A stretch of DNA of 64,000 nt from Thermodesulfobacteriota bacterium (GTDB taxonomy: Bacteria; Desulfobacterota; Binatia; Bin18). The stretch covers positions 1,248,001 through 1,312,000 of the forward strand of contig OZ219926.1 of NCBI GenBank assembly GCA_964291405.2, written 5' to 3'. The position numbers and the translations under genes were made by a program. Positions 1 to 8,745 of the stretch are shown piece after piece. The notes below the pieces were generated by a model, which worked only from the letters and a program-made list of their open reading frames with translations, had not been told where the DNA came from and made no database searches. How positions within the stretch are numbered: position 1 is the first letter of the stretch; the number at the start of each line of letters is the position of its first letter.

Positions 1-120
1 TTTCCTCTTGGTGTTGTATTGTCGGATCTCGTTATTGAGCTTTTGAACATTCTGGCGCTGCTTAGCCTGCGCCTGTCGCAGCATGGAACGGTATTGGGAC
101 GGGGTTACGCGGCGGGCCAT
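1..120 (-). CDS. 5' part of a gene running off the window edge; basic, coiled-coil-like N-terminus (MARRVTPSQYRSMLRQAQAKQRQNVQKLNNEIRQYNTKRK...)
   Basis: Manual translation from ATG at 120 is open to base 1; AT-rich promoter-like region upstream; same strand as the DUF488 cluster. Confidence 0.65.
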   Translation of the reverse strand, partial: MARRVTPSQYRSMLRQAQAKQRQNVQKLNNEIRQYNTKRK

Positions 121-213
121 AATAATATCCCTCGCAGATAATATAAGCTTGCTAAATGTAATATATTGTATTCCTAGACTCAAGACACACAGTATATAGT
201 ATCAGTGTTGCCC

Positions 214-257
214 AGCCCGTAGGTCGGCTTACGCTGCGCTAAGCTGACCTACGGGCT
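214..257. repeat. GTAG-family REP-like palindrome; may also act as a terminator hairpin
   Basis: AGCCCGTAGGTCGGCTTA (214-231) pairs with TAAGCTGACCTACGGGCT (240-257) with one G-T mismatch; 5 bp beyond the DUF488 stop codon. Confidence 0.75.
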
Positions 258-262
258 ATCGA

Positions 263-700
263 TTATCCCAAATGGACAATTTCGACATCGCCCCATTGCC
301 TTTCGAGATATTCTGCAACCAGCCGGCGGTGGCAGTGCTCGGGCTTGTCCTCACTGCATAACAGGCATCCATTGGAGATTGTCCTTTTTATGCCCTTCTT
401 ACTAATACGCCTCTTGTCCATAAGGGCCAAAAACTGGCGCTCATATGTTTCCCAGTCCTTGTGCTCTTTACGATAGGCGTCCAGCATCTCTTTGGTAGGG
501 GCAAGGTCCGGCAGATGAACGTACTTCATCCGGCAGATTTTTTTCAGAAAATATGCAAGGTCATCTCTTTTGGCGAATCCCGCCAGTTGGGAGATATTGT
601 TCAGTCGGACATCAACCAAACGTTTTGCGCCGGACTCGCGGAGGAGTTCAAAGAAAGTGGCAGCGGATTTTTTCGTGAAACCAATAGTATATACTTTCAA
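263..700 (-). CDS. DUF488 family protein (short type)
   Basis: YTIGFTKKSA..FF, LVDVR, SQLAGFAK, LAPT and CLLCSEDKPEHCHR motifs; 4-bp overlap with the upstream DUF488 gene. Confidence 0.9.
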   Translation of the reverse strand: MKVYTIGFTKKSAATFFELLRESGAKRLVDVRLNNISQLAGFAKRDDLAYFLKKICRMKYVHLPDLAPTKEMLDAYRKEHKDWETYERQFLALMDKRRISKKGIKRTISNGCLLCSEDKPEHCHRRLVAEYLERQWGDVEIVHLG

Positions 701-1332
701 AGCACACTCTCCCGCTGGTTGGCACTGGCCTGGGATTTTTCGTCAGTATAGGCCACTTTCTGCGCCTGACGGGTAAGAGCGTCAGCGATGACCTCTGCTC
801 TGGAGGTGAACATATCGCCATCATGGGGCAGTTTGAACAGGTCCAACAGCCGGTCCATAGCAGCGGAGTGATTTTCTATTCTGCCGTCGGCCAGGATATG
901 CTCAACTGCAACGCCGCGTTCTGAAAGTATCCGGGCAACCAACAGCGTACGGTGGCATTCCAAGGGTTCTTTCTCGGTACACATCAGGGCAATGCGGCGT
1001 TCATTGGCGTCTCGCATGACACGTCTGAGACCGTCATCAAACAGGGCCGTATTCGCTACCCGGTCGTACCGGACTCTCCCCTTAGTATCGTAGCACGAGC
1101 GGTCGGAAGGTCGTCCGCCCAGTTCGCGACCCAGAAACACATACCCGATTCCCATGCCCTCCAGCATTCTGTTCAGACTTTCGGAGTTGAAGTACGAAAT
1201 ATGTCGGCTGTACGGGGTCGAGCGAACATCAACGACTTCAGCCACGTCGTGCCGTAGCAGCAGTTGGATGAACGTTTCCGGCGAATGGTTGGAGTGGCCG
1301 ACCGTGAACACCGTATATTGGGTTGCGCTCAT
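697..1332 (-). CDS. DUF488 family protein (long type)
   Basis: VFTVGHSNH, VDVRSTPYSR, ELGGRP and IALMCTEKEPLECHR motifs. Confidence 0.9.
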   Translation of the reverse strand: MSATQYTVFTVGHSNHSPETFIQLLLRHDVAEVVDVRSTPYSRHISYFNSESLNRMLEGMGIGYVFLGRELGGRPSDRSCYDTKGRVRYDRVANTALFDDGLRRVMRDANERRIALMCTEKEPLECHRTLLVARILSERGVAVEHILADGRIENHSAAMDRLLDLFKLPHDGDMFTSRAEVIADALTRQAQKVAYTDEKSQASANQRESVL

Positions 1333-1347
1333 TGTGTTATTCCTCCG

Positions 1348-2025
1348 TCAAGGCTCGATAATGGCGGCAATGAGTTTGTAAGCATAGCCGTGAAAGGGCT
1401 CGCCAAGGCTGACCGTGAGAAACCTCTCTCCAATTTGATAACTACCATCAGGTTGTCGCAGATACTGCCGCGTACAAGTAGGATCTGTAACCCGAAGCCA
1501 ATAAGCTATTCCATTATACCTAAACCGGCCTTGCACGCTTCGTCGGTAGCTACCCAGTCGGGAAACATATAATTCTAGCCTGTCAACCTTGATGAGGCGT
1601 AGCGAGTGATTCAGCGATCTAGCGTCACGGATTGGAACTCTGTCGTTCATTCCGTTTGCGGAACTACGTCCGTTAATCCAAAGCGGCGCTACTGGGTCAG
1701 TGAATTGCGACAGTTCATTCGGAGTGACACTGCGAATCTTTTGCCAGTAATATTCTGGATCAAGCAACCAATTCTCTTGTTGGTAATCTTCTGGTTGCGC
1801 ATTGAGAATAGGCACGTCAATAACGTCAAGAACGCGAGGATCACTCCCGTCCTCATACTGCCGCTCCTCCTCCGATACTTCCTGACTCTCCCGATCGCTT
1901 ACAGGGCGAATCCAATCTCTAACCTGCCCATCCTCTCGAATCTCTTTGCCTGCTATACAGCGGCCACTCATCTTGCGGGAGTTTGCAAGGCACACGATAC
2001 GCTTGATGATCTTAGTAGCCATCAT
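1348..2025 (-). CDS. dual OB-fold-like domain protein
   Basis: IVCLANSRKMSGRCIAG, WIRPVS, YQQENW, LRVTDP, LTVSLGEP..GYAYKLIAAI; AGAAGG RBS before ATG 2025. Confidence 0.75.
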   Translation of the reverse strand: MMATKIIKRIVCLANSRKMSGRCIAGKEIREDGQVRDWIRPVSDRESQEVSEEERQYEDGSDPRVLDVIDVPILNAQPEDYQQENWLLDPEYYWQKIRSVTPNELSQFTDPVAPLWINGRSSANGMNDRVPIRDARSLNHSLRLIKVDRLELYVSRLGSYRRSVQGRFRYNGIAYWLRVTDPTCTRQYLRQPDGSYQIGERFLTVSLGEPFHGYAYKLIAAIIEP

Positions 2026-2087
2026 TTTCCTTCTGTAAGATGATCTGACACTATTATACAAGCGATTCTACAGACACAACTCCGCTA

Positions 2088-2122
2088 GCCCCGTAGGTCG
2101 GATTAGCGGAGGATAATCCAAC
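2088..2122. repeat. degenerate GTAG REP-like element
   Basis: GCCCCGTAGGTCGGATTAGCGGAGGATAATCCAAC shares its CCCGTAGGTCGG-TTA head with 214-257. Confidence 0.6.
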
Positions 2123-2176
2123 ATTTCCGTTGCTTTTGTACTTGTCTGTCGGACACTTTTATTTGCACGGTCAAAG

Positions 2177-3430
2177 TCAGCGTCGGCGTGAAGTTCCCGG
2201 CAGTAATAGCTGTTGGGGAAATGCAATCCGGTCTGTGGGACTGACCCGTCTCAGCATCCGCGAGCGTACCGTGCCATCTGGACGGAGAATATCAATTTCC
2301 CTTTCTCGAAAAAGTTCGAGGACGACGGAATCAAGGTCTGAGAAGCGAGCGGCGGTTCTATTCGCAAACATATGCCGCATCGTATCTATGGTGACAGGCT
2401 CTTCAGACGCCAAACTGAAAAGCTCGTCGGGCATTGAGTTGAGCAGTTGCCTGCGCATAGCCTCGGCGTCCAGTTCTTCAAAATGGAACAGTGGAAGTGT
2501 TTCTGAGTTCAAAGCGTCCCATCCCAGCATGTCGAAGCCACCGGGACCATAGTGCTCGAATTTATTGTAATTGTTCCAGTGACATTGGATCATCACATCA
2601 CGTGCTGTGGGGTGTCTCGAAAGATGAAGAAACCACAGGGCGCGCCGCGACTGTCTGGGCCGAATAAAGAACGGCGTATCATAGGTCGCTTTCGTTGCGT
2701 TACGAATGTGTCCCCGGAGTACTCTTTGAACGAGTGCTCTTCCGCCATCACCATTACGGAGTTGGATCAAGTCGGATATTCGTTGTTCTGTCAGTTCGAG
2801 TGGAGTGACCATTCGGACAAATTCCGGCGTCTCCGCAAGAAAGTTGGTGAGGGCGTCTGCCGCAAACGTCAGAATAATCTCCGCAGCAGGTAGCTCACTG
2901 AAAATCCGAGCGATGAGGCTGATTTCCACCTGTGAAAAGCCGCACTGGTCCAGCAGAAAAAGTGAGCGGCCAGCTCTTGGTTGGCGACGGCGAATTTCGG
3001 TGATAATCCCGTCCACCACATCTTCAAACGGACTGTTACGGACAACGATCTTTTCGTTATCCACCTGATAGCCGCGTTCGTCCAAGACTTTTTGGAGGTG
3101 GTTTGTGTGAGCAGCTTCTACATCAACAAAATAATATTTGAAGTCGAAATGAAGGGTTTTGGTACGATCCTGGCTCAGCCTCTCTATCGCGGCTTCAGAT
3201 TCCTCAAGCATGATTAAAGGCGTGCCGGACACGATCTCGTCGCCATCCAGAAACGTCCCTCCGCCTGCGAAGCCATCAATAAGATCGAGCTTGAATTGAT
3301 CGCGAGAAGGGTTGATGCTCAGCCTGTCGAAATAAGCACGAAGATAACTGCGTAAGACATCAAGTTTCGCCTTGCTGTGTTCTTCTATCGAAGGCGGGGG
3401 TTCATCAGGATGCCATTTGAAGTCTGCCAT
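2177..3430 (-). CDS. tcmP: three-Cys-motif partner protein TcmP (SAM-binding methyltransferase-like fold with C-terminal extension)
   Basis: EEHSKAKLDVLRSYL, LIDGFAGGG, GTPL, YFVD and FLLDQCGF motifs; overlaps the DUF5131 gene by 26 bp. Confidence 0.85.
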   Translation of the reverse strand: MADFKWHPDEPPPSIEEHSKAKLDVLRSYLRAYFDRLSINPSRDQFKLDLIDGFAGGGTFLDGDEIVSGTPLIMLEESEAAIERLSQDRTKTLHFDFKYYFVDVEAAHTNHLQKVLDERGYQVDNEKIVVRNSPFEDVVDGIITEIRRRQPRAGRSLFLLDQCGFSQVEISLIARIFSELPAAEIILTFAADALTNFLAETPEFVRMVTPLELTEQRISDLIQLRNGDGGRALVQRVLRGHIRNATKATYDTPFFIRPRQSRRALWFLHLSRHPTARDVMIQCHWNNYNKFEHYGPGGFDMLGWDALNSETLPLFHFEELDAEAMRRQLLNSMPDELFSLASEEPVTIDTMRHMFANRTAARFSDLDSVVLELFREREIDILRPDGTVRSRMLRRVSPTDRIAFPQQLLLPGTSRRR

Positions 3431-4166
3431 CTTCCCCCGCCTCCAAATACCTGGGCACCCCGTTGTACTCGATTCCCTCTAGTATGCGTCCCTTTGCTTT
3501 CGGCGTCGGTCCACCCCACTGCTTGAAAAAGAAGGGCACGCCCTCCTGCTCGCAGCGATCCCGTACCTCAATGACCCACTCGGGCCGCATGGGCCGGGCC
3601 TTGGGGCCGCTTTCTCCGCCGACGATGACCCAGGCGATCCCCTGGAGGTCTAGATCCCCTATGGGGCCGAGCAATGGCTCGATGGAAAGAAAGCGCGTGG
3701 AGATGGGAGCCTGCTGAAGATGCCGGACCCTGGCGGTCGCCGTGTGGTCTTCAACCGACACTCCGCACCAAATATGCCGTGGGGTAGGACGCGATTGATA
3801 GCGGCGCTGGACATATCTTTTCATGAGCGTACTCCGCTTCGTCAATATCTGGAAAATATGCCGATCAGCCGCTTCCATGATGTCGAACACTTGGTCGATA
3901 AATGTTGTGGGAACCCGCTTGTGGAAGAGATCACTCATGGAATTTACAAAGATCATGCGTGGGCGTTTCCACGTCAGTGGTTGGCTCAGGCGCTCAGGCC
4001 GTAGCGTTAAATCGAACCCGTGTTCAAAGGGGTGTCCGGGAACGCCCCGAAAGCGCTCGGAGAAGCGCTCAGCGTAACAGTGGTCACAGCCCCGCGTGAT
4101 CTTGGTACAGCCTGTCACCGGGTTCCAGGTTGCGTCCGTCCACTCGATTGTAGATTTATAGCTCAT
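3405..4166 (-). CDS. DUF5131 / phage Gp37-Gp68 family protein (radical-SAM-like, Cx6Cx2C)
   Basis: IEWTDATWNPVTGCTKITRGCDHCYAE, FVNSMSDLFH, LTKR, WVIVGGESG, FFFKQWGG. Confidence 0.93.
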   Translation of the reverse strand: MSYKSTIEWTDATWNPVTGCTKITRGCDHCYAERFSERFRGVPGHPFEHGFDLTLRPERLSQPLTWKRPRMIFVNSMSDLFHKRVPTTFIDQVFDIMEAADRHIFQILTKRSTLMKRYVQRRYQSRPTPRHIWCGVSVEDHTATARVRHLQQAPISTRFLSIEPLLGPIGDLDLQGIAWVIVGGESGPKARPMRPEWVIEVRDRCEQEGVPFFFKQWGGPTPKAKGRILEGIEYNGVPRYLEAGEDGRLQMAS

Positions 4167-4492
4167 GGTGACACTACGTTACGTTATGCGCACGGCGTGC
4201 GCTACTTGGTTGTCTCAGCATCGGTATCAACTCATAGGCGAATATAAAGCGAAAGTAAAGCTCGAACCTGATGTGAATAACGTCCCAGCCTCGGCAGGGC
4301 GAATCGCGACGATATTGGTGACAACCGATACGCCAGCAGTATCGGATTATGCCTCCGGCTCACCGATCTACAGGACTAATCCATTTTGTTGCAGCTCAGC
4401 GTCGATTTGAGCCTGATTGTATGTTTCAGTAAACTCACGGACAAAATAGGTTTACTCTCTGCTCGGAGGACGAGCAAGAAAGGAGCGCAACC

Positions 4493-5044
4493 TTGGAACG
4501 AAGAATCCGTATACTCGCCCTGAGTCTGATCCTCCTATTCTGTCTCGGTCTCGTCAATCTCTCCTTCTCTGATGACGCGATTCGTCTGGAAAGCTGGCGG
4601 CATAGACCGAATGAGGGCAACTTTGCCCAAGGGATTGCCGGAGTCTACCTCATCCGCCACCTCACAGACGAGGGCACGACGAATTCCTTCCGATTGATTT
4701 CCTTAACTGCAGAGGGGAACTGGGCCAGCACCCATTCCGGTCAGCACGACATCTTTGGCTCCGCCCGATTCAGCGACCAGCACGGGGTGTGGGCGCGGTC
4801 GGGCTGGCGGGAAATTACCGCGGAGGTGGTCGATTTCAACCTAGACGCCTTGACCGGAGCGCATACCGATATCGTGCGCGTCCGCTATGTGGTGCAATTC
4901 AGCAAAGATTTACAGTCCGTCACCGGTACGCAGAGGGGGCGGGTCTTTCCGCTTGATCAAGACCCGCTGGACCCGGAGGCGGTACCGGCCATGGAGTTTG
5001 ACTCGATATTCTCAGGACAGCGCGTGACAGTCGAGTCCGAGTAG
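4493..5044 (+). CDS. hypothetical secreted beta-rich protein
   Basis: AAGGAG RBS plus TTG start; hydrophobic N-terminal signal (RIRILALSLILLFCLG); HGVW motif. Confidence 0.65.
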   Translation: MERRIRILALSLILLFCLGLVNLSFSDDAIRLESWRHRPNEGNFAQGIAGVYLIRHLTDEGTTNSFRLISLTAEGNWASTHSGQHDIFGSARFSDQHGVWARSGWREITAEVVDFNLDALTGAHTDIVRVRYVVQFSKDLQSVTGTQRGRVFPLDQDPLDPEAVPAMEFDSIFSGQRVTVESE

Positions 5045-5196
5045 CAACGGCGTGTGTGACGCCGAAGGGATCTGTCGTAAGCGGTGTGTCGATACCGTCT
5101 AGAGCTCGGGTGCAGGAATAGCCTATTCGGCGCTCATCGAGTTCTCCCCGGATCGGTATGGACGGTCGTAGCTCCTGACGATTATGTTGTTCTGGT

Positions 5197-5330
5197 TCAG
5201 TGCTGAGGCAAGCTCCGCAAACGATAGCGATGGGGTTCCACGACACAATAGCATTGCTTGAGATATTCTTCCGTATGTTCTCTCAAGGGGCGTTGTAGCT
5301 GTTGATGGACATCCTCAAAATCGGTGGAGA
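5197..5330 (-). pseudogene. 3' remnant of a DUF5615/PIN-like toxin gene
   Basis: Manual translation ...DFEDVHQQLQRPLREHTEEYLKQCYCVVEPHRYRLRSLPQH*; no start codon or N-terminal part; directly after DUF433. Confidence 0.5.
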
Positions 5331-5527
5331 TTATGTGGCATAGGCCACACAGGCTTTCACATCAGGTCAATATCAAGGTCAGGGTAATACTTTTCACTAA
5401 TCTCCTTAAAGGGAATGCCTTCTTGGGCCAGTTCCAGGACATGCTCAACTAATATCCGTGTCCCTCTGATATACGGTTTTCCGAAATGGACCTGTGAGTC
5501 TACACTGAGACGGTCACGATACTTCAT
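5331..5527 (-). pseudogene. DUF433 antitoxin, frameshifted near the 3' end
   Basis: AGGAGG RBS; MKYRDRLSVDSQVHFGKPYIRGTRILVEHVLEL...YYPDLDIDLM* (stop at 5357); the expected tail DVKACVAYAT is in another frame. Confidence 0.75.
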
Positions 5528-5617: not shown

Positions 5618-6502
5618 TTAACGGGGGTCGTTGGGAAGCGCGCGCTGGGTAAATCCCACTACCATGCCAAAGGCTTGCTCCGGCCCGAGAATGACGGTGT
5701 CTGCGCCGTCCGGTTCGGGTCGGAGTTGCTTGTCTCTCAGAAAATCCCGGGCCTGGCCGAGGTCCGCGGTCTTGAATATCAGGGAGTAAATGCCCTCGCC
5801 GTTTTGCTCCAACTCACGGCCTTCCGGGCTGATCGTGGAAAGGGGCTGGGCCAGTTCTACGACCGTGTCTTCTCCAACAGCCACAAAGGCACTCTGCTTG
5901 CGATCCTCAGTGTGCTCCTCGTGGAGCAGGGTCCCGTCCAGAATGTCGCAATACAGCCGCTTGGCCGCGGACAGGTCCCTGACGACGACACCGATGTGCG
6001 AGGCACGCTGGATGCCGAGCGGATGCTGGCGCCAAGGGTCGCTTGACCAGCCCGGTTCCAGCCGCGGGTCGGCGATGTAGTCGCCGGACAGGGCAAACTC
6101 CAGTTGGCCGGGTGTCTGTCTCGGATGCGTCCAAATGGCCGCCGTATCGTACGGCGGCTTTACCTCTTTGCCGACAAGGTTATAGAGCCGCAGGCCGGCT
6201 GTATCGAGCCGGGCAGAGATGGCCGCAACATCGTCTACATACCAGGCAATGGAGTGGAAGTGCTGCCCGAAACGATCGTGAAATTTTTTCACCGACGGGT
6301 TTTTGAGGTTCTCCACGCGGGCGGGCATCATCGGTTCCATGATGACGTCTCCGATGGCAATCAGGGAGGCGTTACGGCCGGCCAGCTCTTCATAGCCGTT
6401 ATAGAAGCGCGTGACCGAGAACACGTCGTCATACCACCGGTCAACGGCTTCGAGGTCGTCCACAACATGGGTGAGATGAAACAGTTTGCCTATGGTGAAC
6501 AT
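5618..6502 (-). CDS. VOC/glyoxalase family protein (two VOC repeats)
   Basis: FHLTHVVDDL, HFHSIAWYVDD, SHIGVVVRDL, VELAQP..GEGIYSL. Confidence 0.85.
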   Translation of the reverse strand: MFTIGKLFHLTHVVDDLEAVDRWYDDVFSVTRFYNGYEELAGRNASLIAIGDVIMEPMMPARVENLKNPSVKKFHDRFGQHFHSIAWYVDDVAAISARLDTAGLRLYNLVGKEVKPPYDTAAIWTHPRQTPGQLEFALSGDYIADPRLEPGWSSDPWRQHPLGIQRASHIGVVVRDLSAAKRLYCDILDGTLLHEEHTEDRKQSAFVAVGEDTVVELAQPLSTISPEGRELEQNGEGIYSLIFKTADLGQARDFLRDKQLRPEPDGADTVILGPEQAFGMVVGFTQRALPNDPR

Positions 6503-6553
6503 GCGTGTCTCTCCTTGCTTTGCACGTGCGAGCTGGTCACGGCCTTGCGCCGT

Positions 6554-7012
6554 TCAGTCGTTGTTGGCCCAGCTCTCTTCGTAGTTCGTGTGCATACGCC
6601 CACGCGCGCGGAGGTGCTGTATCTTCCACTCTCCGTTCACTTTGACGTAATCGTCCTCATAGCGCGCCGCCAGCCACTTGGCCTGATTGTTCTTGTAGAA
6701 CGTGAACGGCCCAAAGAAGTACCAGATACCGGTGGCCCGGTCGCCGTCGATTTTGATGATCGGGTTCATTACCTGGTGCTGGGAGAAGCTGATCAGCGTC
6801 TGAAATTTTTTGAACAGCTCACGAATGGCCTCATGGCCCTGGGCTTTGCCGAAACCAGCACCTTCCCAGATACCGTCTTGGGCAAAAATCGTAGTGATGC
6901 GCTCCGGGTTGTGGTCATCATCGCAAATATCGCAGTAGGTTGCCTTGAGTTGTTTGATGGCCTCAAGGTCCTCAATACGCGTGATACGTTGTTCCAGCTC
7001 GGTCATATCCAT
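6554..7012 (-). CDS. NTF2/SnoaL-like family protein (LinA/BaiE-type)
   Basis: RIEDLEAIKQLKATYC..D, HQVMNPII.IDGDRATG.WY, RYEDDYVKVNGEWKI. Confidence 0.88.
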   Translation of the reverse strand: MDMTELEQRITRIEDLEAIKQLKATYCDICDDDHNPERITTIFAQDGIWEGAGFGKAQGHEAIRELFKKFQTLISFSQHQVMNPIIKIDGDRATGIWYFFGPFTFYKNNQAKWLAARYEDDYVKVNGEWKIQHLRARGRMHTNYEESWANND

Positions 7013-7041
7013 TGGTGTACGCTCCTTCCTTCGTTTCGGGC

Positions 7042-8745
7042 TTATTGCTCATGAGTGCGGAGCACCTGCCCCGGCAGGCCGCCGACATATTCTCCCTCTT
7101 CGTACAGTACGTGTCCGTTCACAATCGTATGGGTGATCCCTTCCGACTGCGTGACGAGCCGACGGCCGCCGCCGGGTAGATCATGCCGAACCTCCGGGCG
7201 TTCCGGAGAGCGCACGGTGTTCAGGTCGAAAATGGTGATGTCCGCCGCCATGCCGGGCCGCAGCAAGCCGCGCTGAGGCAGGCCGAAATACTGTGCCGGC
7301 TCGGAGGTGATGCGCTTCACCGCATGTTCCAGCGTAATCGCCTGTTTGTCGCGCACGAAGGTGCCCAACAGATAGGTTGGATAGCCGGCGTTACACAGCA
7401 TATCGACGTGCGCACCACCGTCAGAGATGCCGATCAGCGTGCGTGGGTCACTGAACTTCTTTGCTACCCGTTCCTCATTGATATCGAGCCGCGGCAGCAT
7501 ATAGTCGAGCCTGAGCCCATCTTCAAGCGAGAGGTCAAAGAAGGCGTCGAGCGGCGCCACGCCACGCTCCTGAGCGATCTGGGCGATCGTTTTCCACTCG
7601 AGCGCCTTGAGGGCGGGCTGCGTCGCTTCCTTCACCTGCGTATTCTTCCAGATGTCACGCAAAAGCGGACGGTGTTCCAGGTCGGCGGCAAACGCGCGAC
7701 GAAACTCCGCGTCCGCATAGGTCCGCTTTTGATCTTCGAGCGAGGCATCACCGAATACCGGCTTCATGGAGCGCAGACTGGCGAACAGGAACGGGTTGCG
7801 CAGATTAAACTCAACCGTCAGTGGCCGCACGGCAACCTGAGGGCGACAACCGCGGTCCAGTAGCGGCGCAACCTGGTCCAGAGTGTCGGTCCAGGCTGTT
7901 GGCGCATCGTCCCGGTCACGCAGATTGAGCCAGGTGACGGGCCGGCCGCTCTCGGCCGCGAGCAACTCAAGCAGCGCGTATTCTTTTGCGGAAACCGTGC
8001 TCGGCTGTTTCGTCAGCGCGATTTCAATTGTGCCGCGGCCGCGTTCCGCGAGGAGCCTGGAATAGGTACGCAGTTCATCCCGGCTCGCCAGACGGCAGGC
8101 CAGCGGTTTGGCTTTGTAGCCGATATGCTGTGGCAGGACCGTGAGCGAGAAGCCGAGTGCGCCGGCGTCAAGCGCTTCGCCCAGCAGCGCGCTGATCTTC
8201 GCCGTTTCATCCTCTGTGGCCTCACGCTCCATAGCGTCGTTCCCCATGACGAACTGACGGAACGGAGACAGGGCGGCCAGAAATCCGACGTTGATACCAA
8301 CCCCGCGCTGAGCCGCCGCGGCCATATACTGTGGGAAGCTTTCCCAGTCCCACGGGAGGCCCTGGTTGAGGACTTCGTAGGGAATCGCCTCAACGTGGAC
8401 AAGGTTCGAGGTCGCAATATCGCGCTCTTCGGGCCTACAGGGAGCCAGACCGACACCGCAGTTGCCCATGATGACGCTGGTCACGCCATGCCAGGATGAA
8501 CAGGTGACCAGCGGGTCCCAACAGATTTGGGCATCATAATGGGTATGTGGATCAATAAAGCCCGGCGCAACAATGAGATCGGCGGCGTCGATGACACGCG
8601 TGGCTCCAGCCGTGATTCTGTCCGAGCCCTTGCCTATCTCAACGATACGACCGGCCCGGACTGCCAGGTCGGCCCGAAAAGCGGGCTGCCCGCTGCCATC
8701 GACGAGGGTTCCGTTTTTTATGAGTAGATCGTAGACCATTATCAT
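7042..8745 (-). CDS. N-acyl-D-amino-acid deacylase family amidohydrolase
   Basis: PGFIDPHTHYDAQ, HGVTSVIMGNCG, SDGGAH, RGLLRPGMAADI. Confidence 0.9.
   Translation of the reverse strand: MIMVYDLLIKNGTLVDGSGQPAFRADLAVRAGRIVEIGKGSDRITAGATRVIDAADLIVAPGFIDPHTHYDAQICWDPLVTCSSWHGVTSVIMGNCGVGLAPCRPEERDIATSNLVHVEAIPYEVLNQGLPWDWESFPQYMAAAAQRGVGINVGFLAALSPFRQFVMGNDAMEREATEDETAKISALLGEALDAGALGFSLTVLPQHIGYKAKPLACRLASRDELRTYSRLLAERGRGTIEIALTKQPSTVSAKEYALLELLAAESGRPVTWLNLRDRDDAPTAWTDTLDQVAPLLDRGCRPQVAVRPLTVEFNLRNPFLFASLRSMKPVFGDASLEDQKRTYADAEFRRAFAADLEHRPLLRDIWKNTQVKEATQPALKALEWKTIAQIAQERGVAPLDAFFDLSLEDGLRLDYMLPRLDINEERVAKKFSDPRTLIGISDGGAHVDMLCNAGYPTYLLGTFVRDKQAITLEHAVKRITSEPAQYFGLPQRGLLRPGMAADITIFDLNTVRSPERPEVRHDLPGGGRRLVTQSEGITHTIVNGHVLYEEGEYVGGLPGQVLRTHEQ

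Follow-up and report, generated by a model that had tools for sequence, protein, structure and literature searches.

The window analyzed here, a 64,000-nucleotide (nt) stretch of DNA from a Thermodesulfobacteriota bacterium (G000:C3:1248001-1312000; GenBank assembly GCA_964291405.2, contig OZ219926.1), carries close to its left end an island of five co-oriented genes, all on the minus strand, that fall into two blocks. The first block consists of a 253-amino-acid (aa) DUF5131 protein of the phage Gp37/Gp68 family, which resembles radical S-adenosylmethionine (SAM) enzymes (positions 3405 to 4166; PF07505, E = 3.8e-95), and a 417-aa protein that matches the three-Cys-motif partner family TIGR04474, from which the name TcmP used here is taken (2177 to 3430; 1.5e-56, 192 bits against a cut-off of 53). 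The second is a triad made up of a dual-OB-fold protein, DuOB (1348 to 2025; PF22557, 4.8e-73), a 211-aa long DUF488 protein (697 to 1332; PF04343, 6.4e-22), and a 145-aa short DUF488 protein of the DUF488-N3a type with a TTG start (263 to 700; PF04343, 1.3e-25; PF22751, 2.3e-12). DUF5131 and TcmP overlap by 26 bp, DuOB and the long DUF488 gene are separated by 15 bp, and the two DUF488 genes overlap by 4 bp. An earlier reading of the window, made from its letters alone (the original prediction), had described the same genes, overlaps, and gaps, and the open reading frame (ORF) listing agrees with it; its domain calls (a three-Cys radical-SAM-like enzyme, a dual-OB protein, and two DUF488 proteins) proved right in hidden Markov model searches, and the CX6CX2C, DGFAGGG, and DVR motifs that it named are all present in the translations. 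It went on to propose that the five genes form one writer-reader-eraser system; our analysis makes it likely that the locus is instead a patchwork, defense-type island of independently mobile modules and not one five-gene system.

The distribution of the two blocks carries this conclusion. Of 401 genomes sampled from the phylum, 16 carry DuOB and 88 carry DUF5131; 4 have both, where 3.5 would be expected (Fisher p = 0.48), or 3 against 3.3 expected without the window's own genome, which is also the only one of the 401 in which DuOB and DUF5131 share a contig. Above-chance co-occurrence of the blocks, which the original prediction had set beforehand as one of its tests, is therefore absent at the genome level. 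As for adjacency, TcmP or DUF5131 lies in the flanks of 3 of 64 DuOB/DUF488 loci, and these three come from two lineages (3 of 9 loci from the genome collection, 0 of 13 from the phylum, 0 of 41 on viral contigs, gathered with a DUF488 alignment, and 0 of 1 further actinomycete locus). Conversely, DuOB or DUF488 was found in the flanks of 0 of 75 TcmP/DUF5131 loci: 0 of 40 in the phylum, 0 of 7 from metagenomes (one with only ∼350 nt downstream), 0 of 25 viral (one not confirmed as TcmP by profile), 0 of the 2 other copies in the window's genome, and 0 of 1 from its genus.

The window's own genome also bears on this independence, as it carries three DUF5131 genes, each paired with a TcmP gene. 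The second copy, near C3:4015175 (L014 8154-10155), is a 2,090-nt block 97.1% identical to window positions 2172 to 4261; it comprises a 95-nt leader, DUF5131, and TcmP, and homology ends 5 nt past the TcmP stop. Neither the triad nor the pP_pnuc_1 gene that follows the triad in the window is found after this copy; downstream of it lie a gene for an AbiGi-like protein of 333 aa and then a type IIG restriction-modification gene 83% identical to the one beside the window's island. In G110, a genome of the same genus, DUF5131 and a 308-aa gene stand opposite a type IIG enzyme with no intervening gene, so that both the triad and the pP_pnuc_1 gene are missing from the interval. These two layouts indicate that the pair is a discrete 2.1-kb unit and that it is separated from the type IIG gene by a slot of variable content. 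The one five-gene system is thus left unsupported both by the adjacency counts and by a copy of the pair that lacks the triad. That the pair is associated with type IIG enzymes in general was considered and rejected: such an association holds within the genus (window, second copy, and G110) and in 0 of the 40 phylum loci (phmmer with two type IIG queries). The type IIG gene beside the second copy (L014 11283-14769, minus strand) is split into two frames of 930 and 313 aa that overlap, pointing to either a frameshift or a misassembly. The third copy of the pair, near 1191499 (L013 6256-8284), is divergent and reversed in order, with a TcmP-like gene bearing a GMT-wHTH domain followed by DUF5131, and a HEPN gene adjoins it.

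Several observations weigh against reading the island as a patchwork. The closest relatives found, two metagenome-assembled genomes (MAGs) labeled Binatia/Binatota (loci L004 and L008), share all five genes and their order with the window; in L004 the collinear stretch corresponds to window positions 4261 to 253 (84.8% identity over 4,023 nt), and the identity of L008 to the window block is 76.5 to 88.9%. The flanks of L004 are unlike those of the window, with a PIN-domain gene upstream and an HSDR_N-like gene downstream, and this collinearity among differing neighbors indicates that, in this lineage, the five genes move as a single block. They are thus inherited as a collinear 4.0-kb block, and some selection for togetherness may have acted on it. 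A second, independent co-location is found in an unrelated actinomycete MAG (L007), where both modules are nested in one operon of the Hma type (SNF2 helicase, DUF1156 methylase, and HEPN-DUF499 ATPase); the genes, all co-oriented and tightly packed, run WYL regulator, SNF2 helicase, TcmP, DUF5131, DUF1156 methylase, DuOB, long DUF488, short DUF488, and HEPN-DUF499 ATPase, with the DUF1156 methylase gene lying between the two modules. Two independent co-locations among ∼60 loci exceed what random genome placement would give, and we tentatively attribute the excess to island clustering. In addition, flanks were often limited by short contigs, which makes the neighbor counts lower bounds, and the structural matches of the DUF488 fold described below are weak (best Z of 7.5). 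As for the Hma operon, Payne et al. (bioRxiv 10.1101/2024.01.29.577857) report that Hma commonly hosts embedded defense systems, and in our reading one such system took up two cassettes in L007. In G787, also an actinomycete, the pair is missing and the triad sits inside an Hma system of this kind, and in L016, L019, and the partial locus L005 the triad likewise lies beside helicase, methylase, and ATPase genes without the pair.

The DNA between and around the two blocks is also organized in two units. A spacer of 151 nt (2026 to 2176, minus strand) separates TcmP from DuOB; it contains a perfect TATAAT at 2058 to 2053, whose context is also kept in the L004 alignment, and a GGAAA ribosome-binding site ahead of the likely true DuOB start, which inspection of the sequence places at an ATG at 2025 or 2022 within the listed ORF of 1348 to 2061. 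Because the spacer carries this TATAAT, separate expression of the two blocks is suggested, and the triad probably has its own promoter; a consensus promoter scan found no full -35/-10 pair in the spacer. At the other end of the pair, the leader (4167 to 4261, minus strand) that was copied along with the pair holds the palindrome GCGCAC-GCC-GTGCGC (4180 to 4200, minus strand), ∼20 nt upstream of the DUF5131 start and imperfect in the 97% copy; judged from its sequence, it could serve as an operator. A de novo count over the upstream regions of the TcmP pair found no common palindrome.

At the distal end of the triad, a hairpin occupies positions 214 to 257 (minus strand), directly 3' of the short DUF488 stop and between that gene and the pP_pnuc_1 gene. 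Its 18-nt arms are 94% complementary and no U-tract follows; the RNA fold has an energy of -32.6 kcal/mol (z of -4.3), and 0 of 200 shuffles folded as well. The hairpin marks the end of the block common to the relatives, with L004 homology stopping at window position 253. A 16-nt direct repeat (CCCGTAGGTCGG[C/A]TTA; 2090 to 2105 and 216 to 231; 94% identity, spacing 1,874) brackets the triad, the copy at 216 to 231 forming one arm of the hairpin, and such a repeat pair might represent a cassette boundary. The idea that the triad is an integron cassette found no support by eye in the hairpin, which has no GTTRRRY/RYYYAAC cores. The 12-mer core of the flanking repeat was also considered as a genome-wide repeat and rejected, there being 3 copies in the 4.9-Mb genome and 5 of a reversed control.

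Turning to the first module, DUF5131 adjoins TcmP in 23 of 25 viral loci, and in the phylum 27 of 40 loci have a TcmP-like gene next to DUF5131 (phmmer with divergent queries). Fused DUF5131-TcmP proteins or ORFs of ∼662 aa are found in P0037, P0057, P0107, and L008 (7868-9868), and these fusions argue for a physical complex. DUF5131 has the motif C20-x6-C27-x2-C30, with the three Cys invariant in 9 of 9 aligned homologs, as is the stretch G183-G184-E185-S186-G187-P188 (GGESGP); GGE-type motifs bind SAM in radical SAM enzymes. The protein has no match to the Pfam Radical_SAM family at E ≤ 0.01, and its score against TIGR04471 (76.9 bits) is below the cut-off of 355.

The AlphaFold model of TcmP (pLDDT of 93.3) has a class I SAM-methyltransferase fold, as the original prediction had proposed, and its best Foldseek match is Escherichia coli RlmJ (6qe0; E = 7.4e-8, probability of 1.0), followed by Trm1 and DUF519; there are 181 Protein Data Bank (PDB) matches at E ≤ 0.001, and among the matches listed all are methyltransferases. 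The DGFAGGG SAM loop lies at residues 52 to 58, and D52, G56, D161, Q162, E184, and H269 are invariant in 87 sequences. Amino-methyltransferases carry a (D/N)PP(Y/F) tetrad at the place that would presumably correspond to D161-Q162. No such tetrad is conserved among the 87 aligned TcmP sequences, which instead have the invariant D161-Q162 followed by x-G-[YF]; any methyl transfer is therefore putative, and TcmP may take up SAM and a flipped base yet not work as a conventional methylase. The C-terminal helical region gives a weak winged-helix match (GMT-wHTH, 17.7 bits, below the cut-off of 27).

The second module is likewise a recurrent unit. The triad, its genes variously ordered, is present in 9 of 9 genome-collection and 12 of 13 phylum loci. 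Viral contigs mostly carry a two-gene form, with DuOB beside short DUF488 in 36 of 41 loci and long DUF488 in only 14 of 41. In four loci DuOB is fused to a complete RecQ-type helicase (DEAD, Helicase_C, RecQ_Zn_bind, RQC, and HRDC domains; L018 7963-10971, L020 5658-8696, L021 7722-10601, and L022 7838-9795), C-terminally in two and N-terminally in two, and both DUF488 genes are adjacent each time. Both DUF488 proteins carry DVR and the C-x-E-x5-CHR motif that the original prediction had described; the motif stands, with a spacing of five residues and not the four first given. The invariant residues are D35, R37, C118, E120, C126, H127, and R128 in 21 long DUF488 sequences and D30, R32, C115, E117, C123, H124, and R125 in 20 short ones. 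Both proteins score above the PF04343 gathering score of 22.2 (long, 78.9 bits; short, 90.8 bits), and against the DUF488-N3a model the short protein passes the cut-off of 27 with 47.7 bits, which the long protein (17.1) does not.

The model of the short DUF488 protein (pLDDT of 87.1) is a five-stranded alpha/beta domain in which a strand terminates at C115 and the next helix starts with the C-H-R-R motif, from residue 124 onward. Foldseek gave no match to this model at E ≤ 0.001. In a VIA structural comparison the best matches were to class III methylase N-domains, with a Z of 7.5 that falls in the range (Z < 8) the tool calls common, and many cysteine phosphatases matched weakly, at Z of 5.0 to 7.1 over 93 to 115 residues. 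PDB sequence searches with the five proteins and a DUF488 profile gave nothing meaningful. From the model and the conserved residues, we infer that DUF488 would be a cysteine-dependent enzyme, tethered to single-stranded DNA, that acts on DNA ends or phosphates.

Both modules occur on temperate-phage contigs, and they are never together in the sampled contigs. There the TcmP pair lies beside repressor, integrase, anti-repressor, late-activator, replication, or terminase genes, and the DuOB-DUF488 pair adjoins the gene of the small terminase subunit, with a conserved phrog_464 gene after it; in L113, L116, L123, and L131, DuOB and short DUF488 are followed by a phrog_464 gene of ∼200 aa (∼6420-7100 in each), with the small terminase gene adjoining in L113, L116, and L131. 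Some 10 of 22 genomic triad loci have recognizable defense-type neighbors (Hma parts, pAgo-like, MmeI or type IIG, or RhuM genes), and the remaining half or so lie among metabolic genes. The triad is nested in Hma-like systems in five loci (L005, L007, L016, L019, and L144). On a Bradyrhizobium chromosome the triad (L009 6144-9911) stands directly beside a pAgo-like gene with a Piwi domain, a PD-(D/E)XK nuclease gene, and a helix-turn-helix regulator gene. Judged from gene content, these settings fit mobile cargo for conflict or for DNA maintenance, and defense is not proven by them.

The gene identities, modularity, independence, folds, and conserved residues observed here allow a working model of the substrates, the chemistry, and the defense role, each of which we state conditionally. 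The folds favor enzymes directed at DNA. The first module is a self-contained 2.1-kb DUF5131-TcmP unit with its own leader, in which DUF5131 would act as an iron-sulfur, radical-SAM-like enzyme in a physical complex with TcmP, the latter being an RlmJ-like, putatively SAM-binding protein of the base-flipping type with a predicted DNA-binding tail; between them they would add a chemical group to a base of a nucleic acid, probably DNA, or take one off. The second module is DuOB with two DUF488 proteins and its own promoter-like element, in which the tandem OB folds of DuOB may hold single-stranded DNA exposed by a helicase and present it to one or two Rossmann-like, cysteine-dependent DUF488 enzymes that could act on DNA ends or phosphates. 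In conflicts with phages or further kinds of mobile DNA, each module would probably play its part independently.

The modular architecture is also compatible with a role of one or both modules in DNA repair or maintenance rather than immunity; for example, DUF5131-TcmP could mend a damaged base by radical chemistry, and a RecQ-linked DuOB/DUF488 could process DNA ends. Consistent with such a role, housekeeping genes flank the RecQ-fused loci L020 and L021, no defense neighbor can be recognized at about half of the 22 genomic triad loci, and on phage contigs DuOB-DUF488 adjoins terminase genes and the TcmP pair adjoins genes for repressors, integrases, or replication; the language-model neighbors of DUF5131 also include a cluster auto-named "DNA repair photolyase" (score of 0.84), a subthreshold match that is a lead only. 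Because neighborhoods of these kinds do not prove defense, we keep a repair-type function in view as an unlikely but serious reading. Against it, both modules were catalogued because they had been found nested in defense systems, those of the window adjoin a type IIG restriction-modification enzyme and a nuclease, triads are nested in Hma systems in five loci and stand beside a pAgo-like gene in another, and the three classical forms of the LexA consensus (CTGT-N8-ACAG, GAAC-N4-GTTC, and GTTC-N7-GTTC) matched in 0 of 30 upstream regions.

A second alternative is that the modules are autonomous and have been kept together in this lineage because they complement each other, as stacked defense systems can. 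The block is conserved at 77 to 89% nucleotide identity in L004 and L008 despite different flanking genes, and the modules are independently co-nested in L007; conservation among close relatives may nevertheless mean only that one insertion was inherited from a shared ancestor, the latest duplication in this genome involved just the pair, and G110 has the type IIG enzyme and DUF5131 without the triad. We regard such facultative synergy as improbable. It would be bolder still to suppose that the modules actively cooperate wherever they meet, with DUF5131-TcmP placing or erasing a radical-SAM-dependent DNA mark and DuOB/DUF488 treating marked and unmarked DNA differently on helicase-exposed strands, and to this we give very little credence; if true, it would be a new kind of modification-linked immunity and would explain both the 4-kb block in the Binatia-labeled relatives and the presence of both cassettes in one actinomycete Hma operon. 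The original proposal of one integrated system, in which DUF5131-TcmP writes a base modification that DuOB/DUF488 read before removing or cleaving the nucleic acid, appeals to the co-orientation of the five genes, to block inheritance in three related genomes, and to the shared Hma operon of L007, and it is the least probable of all given co-occurrence at chance, adjacency in 3 of 64 and 0 of 75 loci, a 97%-identical pair that breaks off 5 nt past the TcmP stop in the same genome, a second actinomycete with a Hma-nested triad and no pair, the TATAAT-bearing spacer that parts the blocks, and the many phage contigs on which each module stands alone.

The two modules have further company at the left end of the window, where positions 1 to 183 (minus strand) encode the N-terminal part of a pP_pnuc_1 protein whose gene continues past the window's end. 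The full ORF, co-oriented with the five genes, is 311 aa long (L003 14248-15183), and its C-terminal half matches PF18165 (5.5e-41), the predicted pPIWI-associated nuclease domain. As a query this protein found no homolog in the other DuOB/DUF488 loci where it was searched for, and its gene is a separate module of the island. Beyond it lie a convergent gene for the 1,114-aa type IIG enzyme (PADLOC REase_MTase_IIG, 9.1e-94) and then core metabolic genes; the window flanks contain no DUF1156, DUF499, or SNF2 gene, so this island is not nested in an Hma system. The DNA of the island is AT-richer than its surroundings, as had been noted, with a GC content of 0.50 to 0.54 over positions 1 to 4000 against mostly 0.55 to 0.62 over the remaining window.

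On the other side of the island, a 183-aa protein with a signal-peptide-like N terminus is encoded just outside it (4493 to 5044, plus strand) and has no family match in Pfam, NCBIfam, or PADLOC. The nearby decayed toxin-antitoxin pair of the original prediction could be confirmed in part: there is a 56-aa DUF433 antitoxin-type gene (5357 to 5527, minus strand; 7.6e-13), and for its partner only ∼300 nt of broken frames after that gene (within 5040 to 5527, minus strand), in which no partner was identified and which may be a remnant of one.

Both modules are widespread (DUF5131 alone is in 88 of the 401 sampled genomes, and many phage contigs carry one module or the other), and the present genome offers a natural experiment, as one copy of the pair has the triad beside it and another, 97% identical, does not. 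The conserved residues are candidates for mutation, and the RlmJ-like fold of TcmP and the cysteine-phosphatase-like layout of DUF488 are structural leads. If either module modifies or processes DNA, thousands of genes would gain an annotation.

A full-text literature search found no functional study or phage assay of either module: DUF5131 appears only as a subgroup in the RadicalSAM.org perspective, TcmP only in gene tables and listings, and none of the mentions of DUF488 is functional for the DuOB/DUF488 module; a whole-word search for "DuOB," "GMT-wHTH," and "DUF488-N3" returned nothing relevant. DUF5131 resembles the radical SAM superfamily in its three invariant Cys in the N-terminal region and its invariant GGE stretch, and it differs in having CX6CX2C instead of the canonical CX3CX2C; in the RadicalSAM.org perspective (PMC9477430), the DUF5131 subgroup is counted in the superfamily as Megacluster-5-2, and Megacluster-5-3 is spore photoproduct lyase.

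TcmP is closest in fold to RlmJ, the E. coli 23S rRNA m6A2030 methyltransferase (6qe0 and 4blu), and to DUF519, with a template-modeling (TM) score of 0.49 to 0.53 on the RlmJ side; sequence identity to RlmJ is ∼10%, and TcmP adds ∼110 C-terminal residues and an obligate radical-SAM-like partner. The DUF488 layout weakly resembles a P-loop, as in protein tyrosine phosphatases (PTP) and dual-specificity cysteine phosphatases (laforin, 4r30; Sulfolobus PTP, 2dxp; baculovirus RNA 5'-phosphatase, 1yn9), but the HCX5R signature of those enzymes is not found in DUF488, which has C115-x7-C123-H-R, and the N-domains of class III methyltransferases match the DUF488 model at least as well (Z of 7.5). 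Hma systems host the triad in relatives, and in L007 the TcmP pair too, whereas the window's island has no Hma genes and its neighbors are the type IIG enzyme and the pP_pnuc_1 protein.

The closest comparison is with the phage defense candidates (PDC) of PADLOC-DB, which bears out the original suggestion that parts of the locus might already have been predicted computationally. The PDC are predictions by "guilt by embedding" that have not been validated (PMC10855318; Payne et al., bioRxiv 10.1101/2024.01.29.577857); the latter study predicts 145 PDC systems, described without assays, and its main text does not name DUF488, DUF5131, or TcmP. PDC-M30 was present in 32 Pseudomonas aeruginosa strains, of which 68.8% were phage resistant, a correlative observation only (PMC10855318). 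DUF5131 matches PDC-M30B (3.5e-102) and PDC-M41B (7.1e-101) over model positions 3 to 235 of 241, and TcmP matches PDC-M30A (4.1e-18) and PDC-M41 A (3.5e-13); these are the same proteins, here adjacent, co-oriented, and overlapping, with nothing structurally different, and PDC-M30 and PDC-M41 are still candidate systems. The triad matches PDC-M45A (DuOB, 2e-92), PDC-M45B (long DUF488, 4.5e-80), and PDC-M45C (short DUF488, 1.1e-74), with matches spanning nearly the full protein lengths; the related PDC-M19 is reached only through the common DUF488 domain (PDC-M19A, ∼1e-19). All three proteins of PDC-M45 are thus matched in the window, where the triad occurs by itself next to a type IIG enzyme, and relatives of the same system include RecQ-fused, Hma-nested, and two-gene (DuOB with short DUF488) forms. 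The locus is a further instance of two known candidate modules and not a new system.

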